From Nitrospirota bacterium (GTDB taxonomy: Bacteria; Nitrospirota; Thermodesulfovibrionia; Thermodesulfovibrionales; Dissulfurispiraceae), in the NCBI GenBank assembly GCA_040758355.1, contig JBFLWF010000051.1, positions 1 to 11,718 on the forward strand: a DNA stretch of 11,718 nucleotides, written 5' to 3'. Every line of letters starts with the position of its first letter. The first letter of the stretch is position 1. This document shows positions 898 through 11,697 of this stretch, in pieces. Made by a program: the position numbers and the translations under genes. Under the pieces are notes generated by a model. The model ran no database searches and was not told the origin of the DNA. It worked only from the letters and a program-made list of their open reading frames with translations.

Positions 898-957
898 ATG
901 AAATTCCTTTTTCTCTATGGTGAAATTAAAAAGTTCATATCGGGCAAGTCCGTATGA
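898..957 (+). CDS. Possible 19-aa peptide MKFLFLYGEIKKFISGKSV
   Basis: AGAGGA upstream. The stop overlaps the next start as ATGA (954-957). Confidence 0.25.
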   Translation: MKFLFLYGEIKKFISGKSV

Positions 958-1172
958 GAAAGCAATATAAAAAGAAAAAAAGGTCATGCAAGCTTTGTAA
1001 GCCTCATAAAATGGGTATTGAAAAAAGATGGAAACCGCAAGAAGCCGAACAGATAAGGATTGCTGAAAAACAAATAAGAAGCATAGCAAATAATATTGAG
1101 GAAAGTGTTTTAGAGTGGGTTGAGGCTGAACAAGCTTGGAGTGAGCTATTAAAAGAAAGAGATAGATTCTAA
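954..1172 (+). CDS. Small basic protein with a CxxCKPHK motif
   Basis: 72 aa. Lys/Arg-rich N-terminus, SCKLCKPHKMG, acidic helical C-terminus. Confidence 0.6.
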   Translation: MRKQYKKKKRSCKLCKPHKMGIEKRWKPQEAEQIRIAEKQIRSIANNIEESVLEWVEAEQAWSELLKERDRF

Positions 1173-1191
1173 CAATTATGCGGAGTAAATA

Positions 1192-1389
1192 ATGTTGAAA
1201 AAAGTATTTTTTGATAAAGAACAGCACAAGGTGCATTTCTTTTACGGCTTGCCGTTGCCGGAAGCCGACCATTTAGACGAATATATTGTCGATGAATTCA
1301 CGCTGGAAAGCGTTTTAGGCTTTATGGTTAATACTGCAAGTTTTGTAGAAAAAAGGATTGTAGATGCCAAAGGGAGGATAGAGGACTGA
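1192..1389 (+). CDS. Hypothetical protein (65 aa)
   Basis: GGAG RBS at ~1182-1185; tightly packed in the + strand run. Confidence 0.6.
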   Translation: MLKKVFFDKEQHKVHFFYGLPLPEADHLDEYIVDEFTLESVLGFMVNTASFVEKRIVDAKGRIED

Positions 1390-1390
1390 A

Positions 1391-1486
1391 ATGAATTACT
1401 GGAGCAGAGAAAATAGCTGGATGGAAATAATAGGGGCATGGGCTATAACCTTTATTCTTTTTTCAATTACGCTTTTCATCAATTAA
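1391..1486 (+). CDS. Small membrane peptide MNYWSRENSWMEIIGAWAITFILFSITLFIN (possibly frameshifted)
   Basis: GAGGA at 1381-1385 and one hydrophobic segment. Removing one A near 1481 would give the basic tail ...LFIIKKSKA*, like its neighbours. Confidence 0.45.
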   Translation: MNYWSRENSWMEIIGAWAITFILFSITLFIN

Positions 1487-1514
1487 GAAGAGTAAGGCGT
1501 AGACGGATAATTCA

Positions 1515-1631
1515 ATGATGGAAGCAGTATTGGTCATACTTATAGGCACAGCAGTGATGGTAGGGATTTATCTGATAGCCCTCGGGCATTACGAAAAGAC
1601 GCATCCGAAGACAAAGAAGCAGAGAAAGTAA
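1515..1631 (+). CDS. Single-TM microprotein, paralog 1 (38 aa; module A, short tail)
   Basis: MMEAVLVILIGTAVMVGIYLIALGHYEKTHPKTKKQRK*; colinear with the 2950-3171 paralog. Not in the ORF track. Confidence 0.75.
   Translation: MMEAVLVILIGTAVMVGIYLIALGHYEKTHPKTKKQRK
1518..1619 (+). repeat. Direct repeat A, copy 1 (copy 2 at 2956-3057)
   Basis: 35 bp exact (1518-1552 = 2956-2990), then 32 bp divergent, then 25 bp exact (1585-1609 = 3023-3047). Confidence 0.95.
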
Positions 1632-1635
1632 AAAG

Positions 1636-1851
1636 ATGGTAGGCATTTATTTTATTTTTGCGGCTGTACTGATAATAGCTCTCTGGGGTCTTATCGTTGC
1701 TTACAGGGAAGATCGACTAGAAGCTAAAAAGGAGCAGGAAAAAGAAGATAAATTAGAAAAGATAGAACGAGTATTGAAGGTATATGCCCAGAAAAACCAG
1801 GATATGGCAGAGGCGATAAAGAAGGCAGGCTTTAATTTATTTGGGGAGTAA
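1636..1851 (+). CDS. Single-TM microprotein, paralog 2 (71 aa; module B + tail C)
   Basis: N-terminal TM helix, YRED, then the tail EDKLEKIERVLKVYAQKNQDMAEA shared with 2950-3171. Confidence 0.8.
   Translation: MVGIYFIFAAVLIIALWGLIVAYREDRLEAKKEQEKEDKLEKIERVLKVYAQKNQDMAEAIKKAGFNLFGE
1747..1814 (+). repeat. Direct repeat C, copy 1 (68 bp exact; copy 2 at 3079-3146)
   Basis: GATAAATTAGAAAAGATAGAACGAGTATTGAAGGTATATGCCCAGAAAAACCAGGATATGGCAGAGGC. Confidence 0.95.
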
Positions 1852-1855
1852 AAAA

Positions 1856-2056
1856 ATGGACATTGAAGAAGTTACAGAAAAACTGGCCAGAAGATTGACA
1901 GATGTTGTCCTTAAAGAAAAAGGAAAATTCGATATTGAAGATATATTAATAAAAATTGAGGGCGATATAAAACAAATCAAAATAATGCTTGCTGTTGCTA
2001 CTGGCTTGACTATTTGCATTTTTTTTATGGTAATGAAATCGCTGTTGGCGATCTAA
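1856..2056 (+). CDS. Coiled-coil protein with a C-terminal TM anchor, DUF1640/CCDC90-like
   Basis: KIEGDIKQIKIMLAVATGLTICIFF resembles the 'KxEGExxLxKWMLG+TM' end of this family. The ATG at 1856 has a GGGGAG RBS. Confidence 0.55.
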   Translation: MDIEEVTEKLARRLTDVVLKEKGKFDIEDILIKIEGDIKQIKIMLAVATGLTICIFFMVMKSLLAI

Positions 2057-2082
2057 ATGCCAAGGAAAAAAGGATGGATTAA

Positions 2083-2340
2083 ATGAGAACGAGCAATTCA
2101 TTAATAACCTCTGATTTTGAAATGGCAGTTAAAAGTCTGATTAAGAACAGAAAAGACGCCAGAGACTACCTAAACACAATTGAACGGTCTTTGAACTCGG
2201 TTTATCAAACTATTGACGAAATTTCTGTACGGAAAAGTCTTGATGAAAATACCACGGATGAAGTTAAAATGCTTATAACTCCTTATTTATTGCTAAGCGT
2301 ACTGTCAAGGCTTGTTCAACAGACTGGAGGAGACAAATAA
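2083..2340 (+). CDS. Hypothetical helical protein (85 aa)
   Basis: AAGGATGGA upstream; amphipathic helical pattern. Confidence 0.6.
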   Translation: MRTSNSLITSDFEMAVKSLIKNRKDARDYLNTIERSLNSVYQTIDEISVRKSLDENTTDEVKMLITPYLLLSVLSRLVQQTGGDK

Positions 2341-2369
2341 CATGATAAGAACAAAACCATCTTACTACC

Positions 2370-2432
2370 TTTAATATCCGCCGCGATGCCAACAAAAAAG
2401 AAAGGGGTATTTATGAGCAGGAAAAAGCTTAA
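2370..2432 (+). pseudogene. C-terminal remnant of a BrnT-family toxin
   Basis: CGC GAT GCC AAC AAA AAA GAA AGG GGT ATT TAT GAG CAG GAA AAA GCT TAA = RDANKKERGIYEQEKA*, preceded out of frame by ATA TCC GCC (ISA). This matches the BrnT ISAR...KER..YE terminus and overlaps the antitoxin start. Confidence 0.7.
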
Positions 2433-2696
2433 ACCAATACCTAAATTTAAATCTGAAGATGAAGAGCGTGAGTTCTGGGCGACTCACGATACAACAAAAT
2501 ACCTTGACTGGTCAAAGGCAGTAAAGGCGAAATTCCCTAACCTTAAGCTTTCCACAAGGTCTATATCGCTTAGATTGCCGGTGTCCCTACTTGAGGAGAT
2601 ATCAAGATCGAGGCTAATAAAAAGGACGTGCCATACCAGTCTCTTATTAAGGTATGGCTTGCCGAAAAAGTACAAAAGAAAGCATTCGCGAAATAA
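2413..2696 (+). pseudogene. Frameshifted BrnA/CopG-family antitoxin
   Basis: MSRKKLKPIPKFKSEDEEREFWATHD...SISLRLPVSLLEEI, then an extra AT at 2599-2602 (GAGATATCAAG). The other frame continues KIEANKKDVPYQSLIKVWLAEKV...*. Repaired length is 93 aa. Confidence 0.9.
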
Positions 2697-2758
2697 AATA
2701 TCATGTCAGCTTTCAGCCGCAAACCTCAAACGAAAAGAATCATACAATTACTGCTCTA

Positions 2759-2804
2759 AAGGAGGTTTATGAGGCTGAAGATCGTTTTGGCCAAAGGGCG
2801 TTGA
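2759..2804 (+). pseudogene. Possible N-terminal stub of a HicB-like antitoxin
   Basis: A perfect AAGGAGG RBS precedes ATG 2769 (MRLKIVL, a HicB-like start), which stops after 11 codons. Confidence 0.3.
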
Positions 2805-2949
2805 TTTATGTTTGTGCTGACGGGGAGCGATATATAAATTCAGCTATCGAAAATACAGAAAAAAATTTAAAAAATATACGGCGTATTTATTTTTGTGGGG
2901 TTTAGCGAGGCTTTTTAATACCCCCTCTCCTGAAAAGAGATGTAATGAC

Positions 2950-3171
2950 ATGGAAATGGAAGCAGTATTGGTCATACTTATAGGCACAGCTATAATAATT
3001 ACAGGTTCTTTGCTGTTTCTTAGGCATTACGAAAAGACGCATCCGAAAACAAATAAGATGCAGGATCGGAAGAAAGAGGATAAATTAGAAAAGATAGAAC
3101 GAGTATTGAAGGTATATGCCCAGAAAAACCAGGATATGGCAGAGGCTTTAAGGCATGTAGGACTATTATAA
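2950..3171 (+). CDS. Single-TM microprotein, paralog 3 (module A + tail C)
   Basis: MEMEAVLVILIGTAIIITGSLLFLRHYEKTHPK...EDKLEKIERVLKVYAQKNQDMAEALRHVGLL. Start placed at 2950/2956 by homology to paralog 1. Confidence 0.8.
   Translation: MEMEAVLVILIGTAIIITGSLLFLRHYEKTHPKTNKMQDRKKEDKLEKIERVLKVYAQKNQDMAEALRHVGLL
2956..3057 (+). repeat. Direct repeat A, copy 2
   Basis: Ungapped and colinear with 1518-1619. Confidence 0.95.
3079..3146 (+). repeat. Direct repeat C, copy 2
   Basis: Identical to 1747-1814. Confidence 0.95.
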
Positions 3172-3185
3172 GCCCTCACAGTTTT

Positions 3186-3194
3186 TGATATAAT
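3186..3194 (+). promoter_or_regulatory. Extended -10 element upstream of paralog 4
   Basis: TG-A-TATAAT, perfect consensus, in intergenic DNA. Confidence 0.45.
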
Positions 3195-3295
3195 TAAATC
3201 AGATTGAGGATCGGTTCCCCGAATTTTTTAGGCCATGAAGAGTAAGAGCATGGTACGGCGGGGCAAGGGGATGAATTATAATCACGGGAATAAAT

Positions 3296-3388
3296 ATGGA
3301 TGGCGTATATGTTATCCTTGCAGGCTTGATTGTTTTGGCGATATGGGCATTTATCATCTCATATCGTGAAGATCATCCTAAAAAATAA
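3296..3388 (+). CDS. Single-TM microprotein, paralog 4 (30 aa; module B, short tail)
   Basis: MDGVYVILAGLIVLAIWAFIISYREDHPKK*. It is 12/26 identical and ungapped to the paralog 2 N-terminus, and ends in HPK like module A. Not in the ORF track. Confidence 0.75.
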   Translation: MDGVYVILAGLIVLAIWAFIISYREDHPKK

Positions 3389-3428
3389 AAACTGAACTCT
3401 AAATAACAAATCTTATCAAAGCGGCTGT

Positions 3429-3720
3429 TATCAAGGAGTTGCACGGATTTCATCCGTCATATGCCAAATGGTTTTAGAATAACTAAACTCATAATAACCC
3501 TGTAATATCAATCAGTTAGCTATCCGGTGCTTTCAAGTTCAGTATTACTTTTGGAAAAATATTATAAATATCAAATAGTTAATTTTTACCTTCCCCTATA
3601 AAACGCCATAAACCTCCCATAAACATCCGTCATATGCCAACTGGATTTTTCGGCATCTGGTGATTTCAAATTTAGTATTGACCCGATCAATACGATATTG
3701 ATTAAGTATTGAGGGATCAA
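3429..3720. promoter_or_regulatory. Structured cis site: three IHF boxes plus direct and inverted repeats (att arm / res / origin candidate)
   Basis: WATCAANNNNTTR at 3429-3441, 3506-3518 and 3569-3581. CATCCGTCATATGCCAA at 3451 and 3624. A 25-mer (21/25) at 3522 and 3655. CCATAAAC at 3606 and 3617. TATTGA cluster at 3675-3712. Confidence 0.55.
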
Positions 3721-5006: not shown

Positions 5007-5059
5007 GAGGCGCACTATTTTTTAAAAAGGATAAAAACATATAAATACAAAAAAACCTC

Positions 5060-5157: not shown

Positions 5158-5706
5158 ATGAAACAGGTAGTCGCAGCCGTACCCCCTGAGGATAGTATAC
5201 TATCCTCAGGGAAAAAAGAAAAACTGTATTATCGCATCCTCGCCGATGCCCGTAGGGCGCGGGTTTACGGCGGTTGGGCCGAAGATGTGGCTCACGAGGC
5301 GTGGATCATCGCCACACAGCGAGGGTATTACCATCCTCGCATGCTCCGCGAGGCGGCAAGAAATCTGGGTTTGTGGCGAGAGGCTGCCACAGAACAGCTA
5401 CAGGAGCGGATTTGCGAGGATGACCCCGAAAAAATTTTCGAGAAAAATCAAAAAATCCAGGCTGTCCGGGCCGTCTTGAAAAAATTATCTTGCCGATGCC
5501 AACTCGTTGTTTTTCTTCACTTTTTTAAGGGGATGAGCCTGCGAAATATAGCGAAAATGAGCGGCGAAAACCTGACGGCGGTCTACGCCTGCCTGAAACA
5601 GGCTGAGGCCGCGCTGCGCGTGCATCTTGCTGATTTCGCGCCTGAGGCACGGCGTGAATCCGCTTCTGGTGCGGATTTGCCGCTTTTTAAGGAGGTGGCG
5701 GCATGA
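5158..5706 (+). CDS. ECF-like sigma-70 factor / sigma region-4 HTH protein
   Basis: Region-2-like AEDVAHEAWI and ...EAARNL; region-4 pattern LKKLSCRCQLVVFLHFFKGMSLRNIAKMSGENLTAVYACLKQA; strong RBS. Confidence 0.7.
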   Translation: MKQVVAAVPPEDSILSSGKKEKLYYRILADARRARVYGGWAEDVAHEAWIIATQRGYYHPRMLREAARNLGLWREAATEQLQERICEDDPEKIFEKNQKIQAVRAVLKKLSCRCQLVVFLHFFKGMSLRNIAKMSGENLTAVYACLKQAEAALRVHLADFAPEARRESASGADLPLFKEVAA

Positions 5707-6568: not shown

Positions 6569-6871
6569 CTATTTCGCTTTTACTGGAGCGCCAAATCTCT
6601 TAAGGGAGAAAAGCACATCCGAAGCAAGGAGATTCCCTTTTATCCCGGCCTCCAAAAAGATATCCATTGCCTCTATTGTGTTTATACCCAAGAGCCTTGC
6701 AGCTTCCCGAAGGGTGATCTTCCCTTGTTTGTAGAGATTTCCCAAGTAGGTTTCAAATCCGATCCTGATAAGCTTTCTCATAGCGGACGACTCTTCTATT
6801 TTTTCTTCGTTCTTAACTACCTCAAGAGCGGACAATATCTCTTCCGGGATGCGTATGGATTTTGTTTTCAT
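6569..6871 (-). CDS. UPF0175-family antitoxin-like protein
   Basis: MKTKSIRIPEE (RHH-like) and LYKQGKITLREAARLLGI. ATG 6871 overlaps the PIN stop (ATGA). Confidence 0.85.
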   Translation of the reverse strand: MKTKSIRIPEEILSALEVVKNEEKIEESSAMRKLIRIGFETYLGNLYKQGKITLREAARLLGINTIEAMDIFLEAGIKGNLLASDVLFSLKRFGAPVKAK

Positions 6872-7338
6872 TGCAGCCTCCAATTCTCTAATACCAGCTT
6901 AACGGTATTGTATTCATCATCGCTCACAAATGGCGATAAGTCCTCCAGTTTCTCAGTTGCCTCTTTTACAGTTAAAACTCCTTCTTTTAACAGTATAACA
7001 ATAAACACCGAGGGTGTTATATATGGGATATCTAAGAGGCGCAATTTTCTAATAAATTTTTTATCATCGCTGCATACAGCAGTAAATTTACTTTGCCGAT
7101 ATAAAGACAATATCGTATCTTCGCCTTTTATGCCTGCTGTTGCAGCCTTGCTTACAAGCAAAAGCTTCTTATCGATGTTTTCTTTGATTATAGCTGCATC
7201 AGGCCGATCACCGGCATTATCTAAAACTTCTTTCTTTACAAGAAGCGGTATAACTACCGAGAAATGTTTGCATACCAGTTCTTTAAGCTTGGATTTTGTC
7301 AGCTTAATTAGACAATCGGCATCCATTAATACTTTCAT
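6868..7338 (-). CDS. PIN-domain (VapC/DUF3368-like) toxin-type nuclease
   Basis: MKVLMDADCLI, VKKEV, GE and SDDKKF acidic PIN motifs. Confidence 0.85.
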   Translation of the reverse strand: MKVLMDADCLIKLTKSKLKELVCKHFSVVIPLLVKKEVLDNAGDRPDAAIIKENIDKKLLLVSKAATAGIKGEDTILSLYRQSKFTAVCSDDKKFIRKLRLLDIPYITPSVFIVILLKEGVLTVKEATEKLEDLSPFVSDDEYNTVKLVLENWRLQ

Positions 7339-8487: not shown

Positions 8488-8547
8488 TTAAATTAAAAGT
8501 CAGTTTGTTATGTTTTTATATGTTTTTAAAATATTTTTTTCGGAGGG

Positions 8548-11500
8548 ATGATGGTAACTATAAGCGATATATATAACAAGCTTTCAGAGTATGAGAAAGA
8601 TAACTACTACCTGAAAGACGAGATGGGCAATGAATTAAAACCTCAGCTTATTGGTAACGGATGGGAGAAGTTAGCCGGGGGACAGGAGATTGAGATGAAC
8701 GAGAACACATACAAATCCCTTAAAGACGGTATTAATCCTTTTACATCAGAACAACTTGTACCTCCAGGCGTGAACGGAGAGAGACGACCAGGGTATAATC
8801 TCACGTTCAACCCACATAAATCGTTTAGTGTATTGGCTCACAGTAGCCATGAGTATAACCAGATTGTTAATAACCTCATAGATAAAGCTGTTAATGATGT
8901 TATGGCTTATTTTGAGAAACACCTTGTCCAGGTCAGGCAGACGCAAGCCGGCGTAACAGAGCCTGTTAAAACAGGAAATATGCTCGCCATGAGAGTTGAT
9001 CACAGTGTAAACCGAGATGGGGATATCCACAAGCATCCTCATATCGTTGTTTTTAATATGTCATATAACGAACAAACGGGGAAATGGCAGGCAGTGCATA
9101 GCGACCCGTTTCATACTGATTTACTCACTATACTATTCAACAATCAGCTTGCCTATTACGCAAAAGAAGCAGGATTGCCTATTGAATTTATAAAAAGCGA
9201 TTCTGGCCGAACCGAGTATGCAGCTATCGCAGGGGTGCCGGAAAAGGCAATCGAAGTAACATCAGAGCGTGCAAAACAAATAGACAAATATATTGAAGAC
9301 CACAGGGAAGAATTGCTTACTAAATACCCTAATGCCGGTGAAGGTGAGTTAAAACAAATCGCGGCTATAGAAACAAGGCAGGCAAAACAAGCTATGACCC
9401 CACAGGAAATACAGAAGCGATTTGAGGATAAGCTTGAAAAAAACGATCTTACTAAAGAGGGTATTGTTGACGCTGTTATTAATAAAGCACACGAATACCA
9501 GGGACGCGAGGATCAAAAGCTTGACCGGTATGAGGTTGTCAGAACAGCTGTAAATTCCTTGAGCGATTATCAATCCGTATTTTCCCATCAGGATATCCTG
9601 AAAAACTCGGCAGCCATCGCAAAAGGGGATGTTTCCTTGAAAGAAATAGAATATGCCCTAAAAGAACTCCGGGGCGAAAATATAAAGCTTAAAGAAACTC
9701 ATACCATCAAAAACGGCACGAGGACTTATGCCGATAGTCTTTATACCACAAAAGAGGTTATGGATGCAGAGAAAAAAATTCTAAACGCCGTCAAGGACGG
9801 GCAGGGGAAAGCCAGCCCTATTATGGACAGGGAGGCGGTTAATAATTTTCTTCAACAGAACCATCCTAAGCTCACTCAATCGCAGAAAGATACTCTTACT
9901 TTTCTTATGTCCAGCCATGACAGTATCAATGCAGTACAGGGTTTCGCCGGAACTGGAAAAACAACCGTGATGAAAACTGCAAGGGAGTTGTTAGATGCAA
10001 ATGGCTACAAGGCCGTTGGGCTGTCAGAGACCAACACCGCAGTCAATGAGATGAAAGCCGCAGGAATAGGTGATGCTATGACTGTATCAAAGTTTTTACA
10101 CTCTTATGCAGCGCAGAAATCGCTTGACGATAGAACTGTAGTTATTATTGATGAAAGCTCATTTTTGGGCAGTAAAAATTTTAGCAAGCTGATAGATATA
10201 GCTCAGCGGCAAGGATCCCGATTCTCGCTTTGGGGAGATAAAGATCAGTTGCCGCCAGTTGCCGCAGGTGGTATGTTTACTCACCTTATCGAGAACAAGA
10301 TTATTAATTATGTTGAGTTGAAGGATATCGTGAGGCAAAAGGACGAGGCATACAAAAGCGCCGTGTACGACATAATCAATAAAGACATATCAAGTGCTGT
10401 TAATAAAATTGAAGCTAAAGAGGACCTTCACGAGGTTACTTTCCAAAGTGTGAAAGAAAAAAATCCAAATCTCTCCGATAGAGAGATCCGTCAGTTGCAA
10501 CTCGAGGCCATAAGGGAAAAGACAGTTGAACTTTATGTGAAAAATGACGGCTACCGAAATTTTGTAGGTTCTGTTGCGACAAACGAACAGAGAAGCTGGT
10601 TAAATGAACGGATAAGGACAGAATTGCAGGGGAAAGGCGTTATCTCTAAAGAACAAGCTGATATTACTATATACGCAAGCAAAAACCTTTCGGATGTTGA
10701 AAGGTTTAAAGCCGATTCTTACGGTGTTGGAGACAAGCTGTATGTGATTAAAGGCGGAGCAGGCATTAAAGTAGGGTCAGAGCTTACAGTAAGCAGAGTG
10801 GATGCCGAGAAAAACAAAATTTATGCGACTGACAGCAAAGGCTTTGAGCGAGAGATAGACATCCGCAGACACGGTGAAAAGTTTGCAGCTTACAGCCCTG
10901 AGAAGATTCAGCTTGCCAAAGGAGATAAAGTAATTTTTAACAAATCAATCAAAGACGGTCCTGCTAACTCCGATATCGCATATGTCAAATCGGTCAATAA
11001 AGACGAAAAAGGTAATGTGAAGTCTGTAACTTTCGATTATATGGGAAAGGAATACACTACCGACTCTAAACACTTCGAACACGGATATGCTTATACTGCA
11101 TACAAAAGCCAGGGCAAAACCTCACAGGGAGTTATTTATACCGCAACAAAAACACAAGCAGAAGGGAAATATCAGGAGTTTTATGTTTCGATATCGAGAG
11201 GTAAGGAGAGAGCTATTATTGTAACAGATTCCAAAGAACAGTTAATTAAAGACGCCGCTAAAACTGTTGAGAAGGAAACCACCCTTAAATATACAAAATC
11301 GGGCGATATGGATAAGATTATTAACCATGAACTTAAGAAAGAACAAAGAGAACTTCTTAATGTAGACATACAGATTGCAAAACTGAAGGAAGAAGGGAAG
11401 GACACCGGCGCACTTGAACAGAAGAGAGCCGAGCATCAGGAGAAGATTAACATTCTCAGGGATGCACGGCAGGCGCTTAAAAACGATAGGGAGAATGTAC

Positions 11501-11697
11501 ACCAACAGAAGGAGGCCTATAATTTTAAGCCAGAGCTAAAGAAAAAGGGAGAAGCTTATTTCCGCATCGACAAGACAAAAGATAAAAATATCGGCTCATC
11601 GTGGAAGAGAGTGGGTAAACCGATGGACTTGAAGCGGTATAACATGGCTTCAAATAATGGGGAAAGAGCTTTCAAAGGGGCGAGAAAATCCGTATGA
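8548..11697 (+). CDS. trwC: MOBF conjugative relaxase-helicase (TrwC/TraI-like)
   Basis: DNYY; RPGYNLTFNPHKSFS; H152-x10-H163-x-H165. RecD-like helicase motifs QGFAGTGKTT, IIDES, GDKDQLPPV, IVRQ, HGYAYTAYKSQGKT and FYVSISRGK. Confidence 0.95.
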   Translation: MMVTISDIYNKLSEYEKDNYYLKDEMGNELKPQLIGNGWEKLAGGQEIEMNENTYKSLKDGINPFTSEQLVPPGVNGERRPGYNLTFNPHKSFSVLAHSSHEYNQIVNNLIDKAVNDVMAYFEKHLVQVRQTQAGVTEPVKTGNMLAMRVDHSVNRDGDIHKHPHIVVFNMSYNEQTGKWQAVHSDPFHTDLLTILFNNQLAYYAKEAGLPIEFIKSDSGRTEYAAIAGVPEKAIEVTSERAKQIDKYIEDHREELLTKYPNAGEGELKQIAAIETRQAKQAMTPQEIQKRFEDKLEKNDLTKEGIVDAVINKAHEYQGREDQKLDRYEVVRTAVNSLSDYQSVFSHQDILKNSAAIAKGDVSLKEIEYALKELRGENIKLKETHTIKNGTRTYADSLYTTKEVMDAEKKILNAVKDGQGKASPIMDREAVNNFLQQNHPKLTQSQKDTLTFLMSSHDSINAVQGFAGTGKTTVMKTARELLDANGYKAVGLSETNTAVNEMKAAGIGDAMTVSKFLHSYAAQKSLDDRTVVIIDESSFLGSKNFSKLIDIAQRQGSRFSLWGDKDQLPPVAAGGMFTHLIENKIINYVELKDIVRQKDEAYKSAVYDIINKDISSAVNKIEAKEDLHEVTFQSVKEKNPNLSDREIRQLQLEAIREKTVELYVKNDGYRNFVGSVATNEQRSWLNERIRTELQGKGVISKEQADITIYASKNLSDVERFKADSYGVGDKLYVIKGGAGIKVGSELTVSRVDAEKNKIYATDSKGFEREIDIRRHGEKFAAYSPEKIQLAKGDKVIFNKSIKDGPANSDIAYVKSVNKDEKGNVKSVTFDYMGKEYTTDSKHFEHGYAYTAYKSQGKTSQGVIYTATKTQAEGKYQEFYVSISRGKERAIIVTDSKEQLIKDAAKTVEKETTLKYTKSGDMDKIINHELKKEQRELLNVDIQIAKLKEEGKDTGALEQKRAEHQEKINILRDARQALKNDRENVHQQKEAYNFKPELKKKGEAYFRIDKTKDKNIGSSWKRVGKPMDLKRYNMASNNGERAFKGARKSV

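Follow-up and report, generated by a model that had tools for sequence, protein, structure and literature searches.

Why should four short genes for related single-transmembrane (TM) microproteins, made of two kinds of head and one shared tail, be crowded between positions 1515 and 3388 of a single contig of a Nitrospirota bacterium (GenBank assembly GCA_040758355.1, contig JBFLWF010000051.1)? The stretch analysed here, hereafter the window, is this entire contig of 11,718 nt (C51 of a 93-contig, short-read draft genome). A preliminary description had seen in the four genes two pairs of a short and a tailed member, with a reciprocally swapped cytoplasmic tail, and had proposed a combinatorially diversifying membrane system. 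Our analyses lead to another answer: the window contains partner genes that have been orphaned, together with a genuine member of a tailed family and a fusion of local origin. Most of the locus is cargo of a mobile element in the course of erosion, and its lasting lead is a two-gene module formed by a DUF6722 protein and a single-TM microprotein, which is widespread across the order and undescribed.

All four genes lie on the forward strand. Gene 1 (1515..1631, 38 aa) and gene 3 (2950..3171, 73 aa, or 71 aa if the start is at 2956) carry an A-type head, gene 2 (1636..1851, 71 aa) and gene 4 (3296..3388, 30 aa) a B-type head, and genes 2 and 3 continue in frame into a tail, C. The open reading frames (ORFs) are as first described, each encoding a single N-terminal hydrophobic helix; basic residues are absent ahead of this helix and number three to six in the 15 residues behind it, and HPK follows the helix in three of the four. 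Exact identities of 35 and 25 bp between the A heads of genes 1 and 3, and of 68 bp between the two copies of the tail C core (1747..1814 and 3079..3146, both on the forward strand), are far beyond chance, since 200 Markov resamples of the window gave no repeat above 17 bp. The A and B heads are themselves related according to profile alignment (hhalign 88.6%, E 2.7e-6, on shallow alignments), and the proteins belong to an unnamed single-TM microprotein family: neither they nor their counterparts in the operons described below reached the cut-off of any Pfam, NCBIfam, PHROG or PADLOC family.

The distribution of these identities tells more about their origin. Between the A heads, codons 1-12 agree at 35/36 nt, codons 13-22 at 12/30 and codons 23-33 at 30/33, and the divergent middle of gene 1 resembles the A gene of one other genome (G003, 25/30 nt) while that of gene 3 is nearer to the A gene of a second (G004, 19/30 nt). 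Tail C is identical at 68/68 nt between genes 2 and 3, with flanks at 12/17 and 12/25, and was thus copied recently, as first proposed; both heads do occur with and without it. In their B heads, genes 2 and 4 agree at 47/78 nt (60%), with a longest common word of 9 nt. Had the exchange been reciprocal, these two heads should still be almost identical; gene 4 therefore did not arise as the counterpart of gene 3 in one event, and the proposed swap is not supported. Genes 3 and 4 are not a convincing pair either, being 124 nt apart with a conserved non-coding segment (3181..3271) between them, and a fixed pairing of short and tailed genes is contradicted by tandems of two short genes at three loci elsewhere (L025, L116, L117). 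The MVGIY motif that had been taken to link genes 1 and 2 was rejected as a link: resampled regions contain on average 0.56 such 15-mer matches (one mismatch or none), 900-3700 itself contains two that are unrelated, and the start of gene 2 is explained by the B subfamily described below.

Genome mining revealed where such microproteins normally reside. A six-sequence B model matched in 19 of 151 genomes of the order (16 after removing four weak rows in long frames), and its matches were genes of 29-38 aa, nearly all of them of 31-37 aa, at unrelated loci, mostly right behind a gene of 63-66 aa that passes the cut-off of DUF6722 (PF20482). This family itself was matched in 24 of 251 genomes, with up to six copies each, in 14 of 151 genomes across the phylum and in none of 14 control genomes. 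Wherever the first gene is intact, a whole DUF6722 gene is always followed by a single-helix partner, with a gap of -7 to +12 nt between the two. The host genome has one such intact operon, on contig C39, and the window has no match to DUF6722. The partners are proteins of 30-40 aa with one N-terminal TM helix and a basic C-terminal stretch, a description that the window genes share, genes 2 and 3 differing from it by their additional tail. Gene 4 has 77% identity with the L021 partner, which lies behind a gene above the PF20482 cut-off, and the start of gene 2 is that of a B subfamily beginning MGIYFIFAA in other genomes (53/72 nt to L046). A model built from 24 partners matches genes 2 and 4 and not genes 1 and 3, which are tied to DUF6722 partners by profile comparison alone.

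The DUF6722 protein is predicted to form a helical hairpin of two helices (pLDDT 86), for which no PDB match was found at E 0.001; a prediction of its complex with the partner (score 0.01, mark 0.32) counts neither way. Our literature search returned no paper naming DUF6722 or PF20482 and none relevant to the module, and a plasmid search returned no DUF6722. Both starts could be assigned at 25 of 30 PF20482 loci, although the first gene of two of these 25 later proved to be broken. Of the 25 partners, 24 have a ribosome-binding motif in front; none of the first genes does, and 13 of them lie 4-10 nt behind a -10-like box. With the usual spacing rule for leaderless genes, this position suggests leaderless translation of the first gene. 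Three DUF6722 genes (L031, L052, L135) have ATA or ATT at the expected start after the -10-like box, reflecting either the loss of a start codon or unusual initiation.

A-type genes are rarer. Their model matched in three of 151 genomes after removal of one weak row, all of them members of the genus, plus one more record, and outside the window they are always 33 aa long or broken, behind a 56 aa two-helix gene of same-genus genomes. This upstream gene was also considered as a DUF6722 homologue and rejected, as 323 of 500 shuffles scored as well.

Against this background, the window bears several signs of loss. The upstream two-helix gene is absent for all four genes, making genes 1 and 4 orphans, the latter as a partner of DUF6722, and all four lack the ribosome-binding motif that normally precedes the partner. 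In gene 1, the final 18 nt (1614..1631, forward strand) are probably the scar of a DUF6722 3' end with a degraded ribosome-binding site: compared with 25 DUF6722 gene ends, they agree at 15/18 nt with the two best and at 14 or more with five, when among 3652 control ORF ends one reaches 15 and four reach 14. Because the end of gene 1 matches DUF6722 ends, genes 1 and 2 were probably once separated by a DUF6722 gene that has been deleted. A related element in a same-genus genome (G002) has a tandem of this type with such a scar, and a junction of this type also occurs in L036.

Gene 3 retains about 16 nt of the upstream gene of A (2934..2949, forward strand), a remnant of the 3' end of the two-TM gene that precedes A in G003, again with an altered ribosome-binding site (blastn of 2934-3053 against L013 1488-1601, 74%). 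It departs from the other A genes at their stop codon (junction at about 3048-3062) and reads into C, and its two parts align, at offsets of 1438 and 1332, with genes 1 and 2 in the same order, 106 bp being missing from between them. Gene 3 looks like a local deletion or frameshift fusion.

Tail C has a much wider distribution than the window suggested. A three-sequence C model matched in 47 of 251 genomes, with up to 23 matches each, and in 28 of the 30 loci inspected C ends a protein of 127-190 aa that begins with a signal-like stretch and continues through a coiled coil, which varies in length, to a TM helix. These long proteins share tail C with the window genes, which lack the exported coiled coil, and they reached the cut-off of no Pfam or NCBIfam family; they may resemble DUF1640/CCDC90-type proteins, although a literature search found nothing on this. 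They occur in tandem arrays (L063-L091, e.g. L077, G170:C105), with a conserved motif between the TM helix and tail C. Short TM+C genes exist elsewhere too, at four loci in other families, and the B+C genes of L093 and L094 have good ribosome-binding sites and no DUF6722. Twelve proteins of 68-77 aa were counted among 28 matches, six of them with B-like heads. Gene 2 is 64% and 59% identical to two such proteins (P0009, the best, and P0011) over 90% of its length, and another was seen on 10 contigs. Since B+C relatives occur in unrelated genomes, gene 2 is, judging from these comparisons, an ordinary member of a real B+C family and not a local swap product.

The model searches for further head-tail combinations that had been recommended at the outset found C joined to three or more kinds of head in different genomes, and A+C in the window only (one of 151 genomes, no other protein record). 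This blank is weak, short-query searches being insensitive: phmmer with the 37 aa tail against 1.84 billion representatives retrieved gene 2 alone although relatives exist. A single-sequence search with gene 2 returned two window proteins only, the ESM Atlas gave leads all below 0.9 for gene 2 and none for the tail, viral contigs yielded no TM+C gene, and a metagenome scan yielded one locus with the long form of C.

Outside the window, the decay of the module is one-sided. Among 64 module places, 43 were intact, eight had a broken first gene with a remnant, five lacked the first gene, five had both genes broken, none had the second gene alone broken and three could not be scored. With the first gene given a 2:1 mutational target size, the 13 cases in which it alone is broken or missing against none for the second correspond to P 0.005, and the eight broken cases against none to P 0.039. 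PMC13617665 reports the same direction in validated toxin-antitoxin (TA) systems, the toxin alone being decayed in 185 cases and the antitoxin alone in eight; toxin-first operons exist, with an excess of antitoxin as the rule, according to PMC7167474, and orphan antitoxins are described as common on conjugative elements in PMC11541004. Because the decay is one-sided as in validated TA systems, and because toxin-first operons and orphan antitoxins are on record, we infer a harmful two-helix first gene and a neutralising microprotein.

Put together, these results argue for an explanation that we hold, as a whole, to be reasonably probable: the window genes would be orphaned second genes of a two-gene membrane module, stranded in eroding cargo. 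The intact module would consist of a helical-hairpin protein of 55-66 aa (DUF6722 for the B type) followed by a single-helix microprotein of 30-40 aa. Modules would have been inserted in tandem in an element marked by a TrwC relaxase, short deletions would then have taken out the first genes, and a second, related array of A and B+C would have lost its middle so that A now reads into C as gene 3, the identical patches being left by gene conversion or recent duplication. Taken by itself, this history of orphaning and local fusion is the part that we regard as clearly likely. The intact module might further be a membrane addiction pair with the toxin encoded first: the two-TM protein, translated weakly and probably from a leaderless message, would be harmful, and a strongly translated microprotein would neutralise it; the first gene could then be lost alone and the second could not, and the window genes would be spare antidotes, probably poorly expressed. 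We put this toxin-antidote function forward tentatively, as somewhat short of probable. It keeps the earlier notion of toxin/modulator pairs in an altered form, the likely toxin being the missing two-TM gene and not a gene of the window. A more speculative extension, which we rate as possible and no higher, is that DUF6722 and its partner form an undescribed all-membrane toxin-antidote system, with a leaderless two-TM toxin and a microprotein antidote led by a Shine-Dalgarno (SD) motif, and that the element collects orphan antidotes of two specificities, some equipped with a cytoplasmic tail derived from the large coiled-coil family, which would disarm such modules in new hosts.

Several observations weigh against this account. 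The A and B modules share a layout and not a proven ancestry, the gene before A being not detectably related to DUF6722. The four frames are open and genes 1 and 4 lie behind -10-like boxes, so that their products may still be made; these hexamers are weak in the case of 1506-1511, just before the start of gene 1, and lie at 3277-3282 before gene 4, and single sites are weak evidence in a window where a promoter scan found five sites against 9.1 expected. The B+C genes without DUF6722 in L093 and L094 suggest that tailed forms may serve a separate function. The tally of module places was scored by eye on places that are not independent, one of which (L109) was reassigned when read a second time, and in a leaderless gene the loss of a start codon is difficult to recognise. 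Named TA families were found near three of 30 intact modules and in two of 20 control stretches of the host genome, hence no enrichment, in a scan that took the longest ORFs of each set (143 of 273 and 115 of 162). Finally, no DNA-binding family was detected in either module gene, unlike typical type II antitoxins.

Comparison with known systems delimits the candidate further. Toxin-first type II operons (higBA, hicAB, mqsRA, rnlAB) likewise have two small coupled genes, of which the second is better translated and the first is lost first (PMC7167474, PMC13617665); by contrast, both products of the module are membrane helices with no nuclease or DNA-binding domain, and TA genes are not enriched around it. 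Orphan second genes together with an orphan CopG-type antitoxin on a relaxase element, and the similar tandem in G002, recall the orphan antitoxins of conjugative elements (PMC11541004), from which the window differs in that its CopG gene is broken and its ribosome-binding sites are altered. DUF6722 itself is present upstream of B-type microproteins in relatives and lacking in the window. The small membrane toxins GhoT, Hok and TisB have a similar size and one or two hydrophobic helices, and are held in check by RNA or RNase, whereas the candidate antidote here is a membrane microprotein, and the conserved non-coding segment gave no antisense match among the 15 best short blastn rows. Concerning the exclusion roles initially envisaged, the exclusion and holin families stayed below cut-off (SieB E 0.03, holin E 0.012), with weak spanin rows at E 0.003-0.006.

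The strongest competing explanation is a benign one, in which the module would be a two-subunit membrane regulator or small channel and the microprotein would act alone on a host membrane protein and be kept for that purpose, and tail C, taken over from the long coiled-coil family, would add a helix for interactions in the cytoplasm. Intact modules do lie beside housekeeping genes and not in TA islands (tonB/exbB/exbD in four loci, L120, L126, L128 and L129; ispD/ispF in two, L107 and L110), two genomes have whole B+C genes and no DUF6722 with them, and long C-family genes adjoin the module in G090 and G227. However, the scattered occurrence of the module (24 of 251 genomes, at loci unrelated to one another, in up to six copies) and the one-sided decay better fit a selfish or costly first gene, and we consider a benign role unlikely.

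Active combinatorial diversification, the proposal from which this work departed, would have heads and tails exchanged by recombination through conserved patches, giving variant exclusion or recognition peptides. It draws on the identical patches that flank the divergent middle of the A head, on middles that match different genomes, on the in-frame junction of gene 3, on the three or more head types that carry C and on the rearrangement of the region relative to the G002 element. Yet no reciprocal B product exists, B+C is an older family of unrelated genomes, A+C is local, a family scan of the 22 window proteins detected no recombinase, all four genes lie on one strand, their ribosome-binding sites are altered, and no copy of A, B or C that could serve as donor was found elsewhere in the host genome at the E-values of that search. 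Moreover, invariant genes in relatives and decaying duplicates here, the outcome named beforehand as contrary to diversification, largely describe what we recovered. We therefore judge it improbable. Programmed head-tail switching of the shufflon type was likewise rejected, in view of B heads 60% identical, the missing recombinase, and a search that found no long inverted repeats around the four genes. An assembly artefact, conceivable for a short-read draft of 93 contigs and a contig ending in multicopy sequence, is very improbable, since at 123 of 186 contig ends an identical 127 nt recurs at some other end. As contig-end overlap reflects word length, the assembly word was presumably about 127, which exceeds the 68 bp repeat; moreover, both repeat copies have distinct flanks matching relatives.

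Beyond the history of the window, the locus thus exposes a two-gene membrane module for which no literature was found and whose second gene is often missed by annotation. It provides a first cheap hypothesis for DUF6722, testable by kill-rescue with two genes of <200 bp, and, if true, a protein-protein addiction pair made of membrane helices only would be an unusual kind of TA system. It also reveals a cytoplasmic tail module common to microproteins and to a large, unnamed multicopy family.

The element carrying these genes can be recognised from its content. Because a TrwC relaxase/helicase (8548..11697, forward strand, PF08751 E 2e-48), helix-turn-helix regulators and an integrase-core fragment were found by a family scan of the 22 window proteins, the contig is, on its gene content, a mobilisable or conjugative element, marked by the relaxase; both of its ends are multicopy insertion sequence (IS). 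Related elements are present in two same-genus genomes (G001 and G002), and one gene of the G002 element is, from its motif, presumably a tyrosine integrase.

The conserved non-coding segment between genes 3 and 4 (3181..3271, forward strand) opens with an extended -10-like box (3186-3194). Its approximately 80 nt occur in three of 121 genomes, once each and always in relaxase elements (window 3181-3271; G001 and G002 elements, L010 9127-9215 and L009 15888-15970), with 83-85% identity, and the G001 and G002 elements keep the segment without microprotein genes at that place. It had no Rfam match, and 0 of 15 pairs covaried among the three sequences; it is a candidate small RNA or transfer/attachment site. 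The stretch 3195-3275 had no second contig match among the 15 best short blastn rows, which leaves room for an opposite-strand RNA overlapping a gene. Further downstream, a 25 nt direct repeat (3451-3475 and 3624-3648, 92%) could be a protein-binding or recombination site, and one copy of it also lies near the conserved segment in the G002 element.

Between the two halves of the array, a CopG-type antitoxin gene (2413..2696, forward strand, PF12441 E 1e-23) is frameshifted by a 2 nt insertion relative to the intact G002 copy, which by this alignment is a sign of erosion in the region; upstream of the intact copy, the cognate toxin gene is also apparently absent. Directly after gene 2 lies a gene for a 66 aa protein with a coil and a C-terminal TM helix (1856..2056, forward strand, no Pfam family), and genes resembling it, with only a weak 15-residue match, come after the module in L040, L041, L054, L102 and L116. 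Ahead of gene 1, 1392-1483 is a truncated remnant of a gene for a 103 aa membrane protein, of which G002 has an intact copy (L009 15995-16306), oriented the other way with respect to the antitoxin gene, and 954-1172 is a 72 aa basic ORF without family, with a paralogue of 42% identity on contig C16. An inverted repeat of about 27 nt (5019-5058 and 8502-8531, 85%) is intergenic, before the operon at 5158 and before the relaxase, and may represent a shared operator. Finally, two overlapping minus-strand genes occupy a low-GC insert at 6569-7338, one with a weak UPF0175 match, and together they give the impression of an intact TA-like pair.

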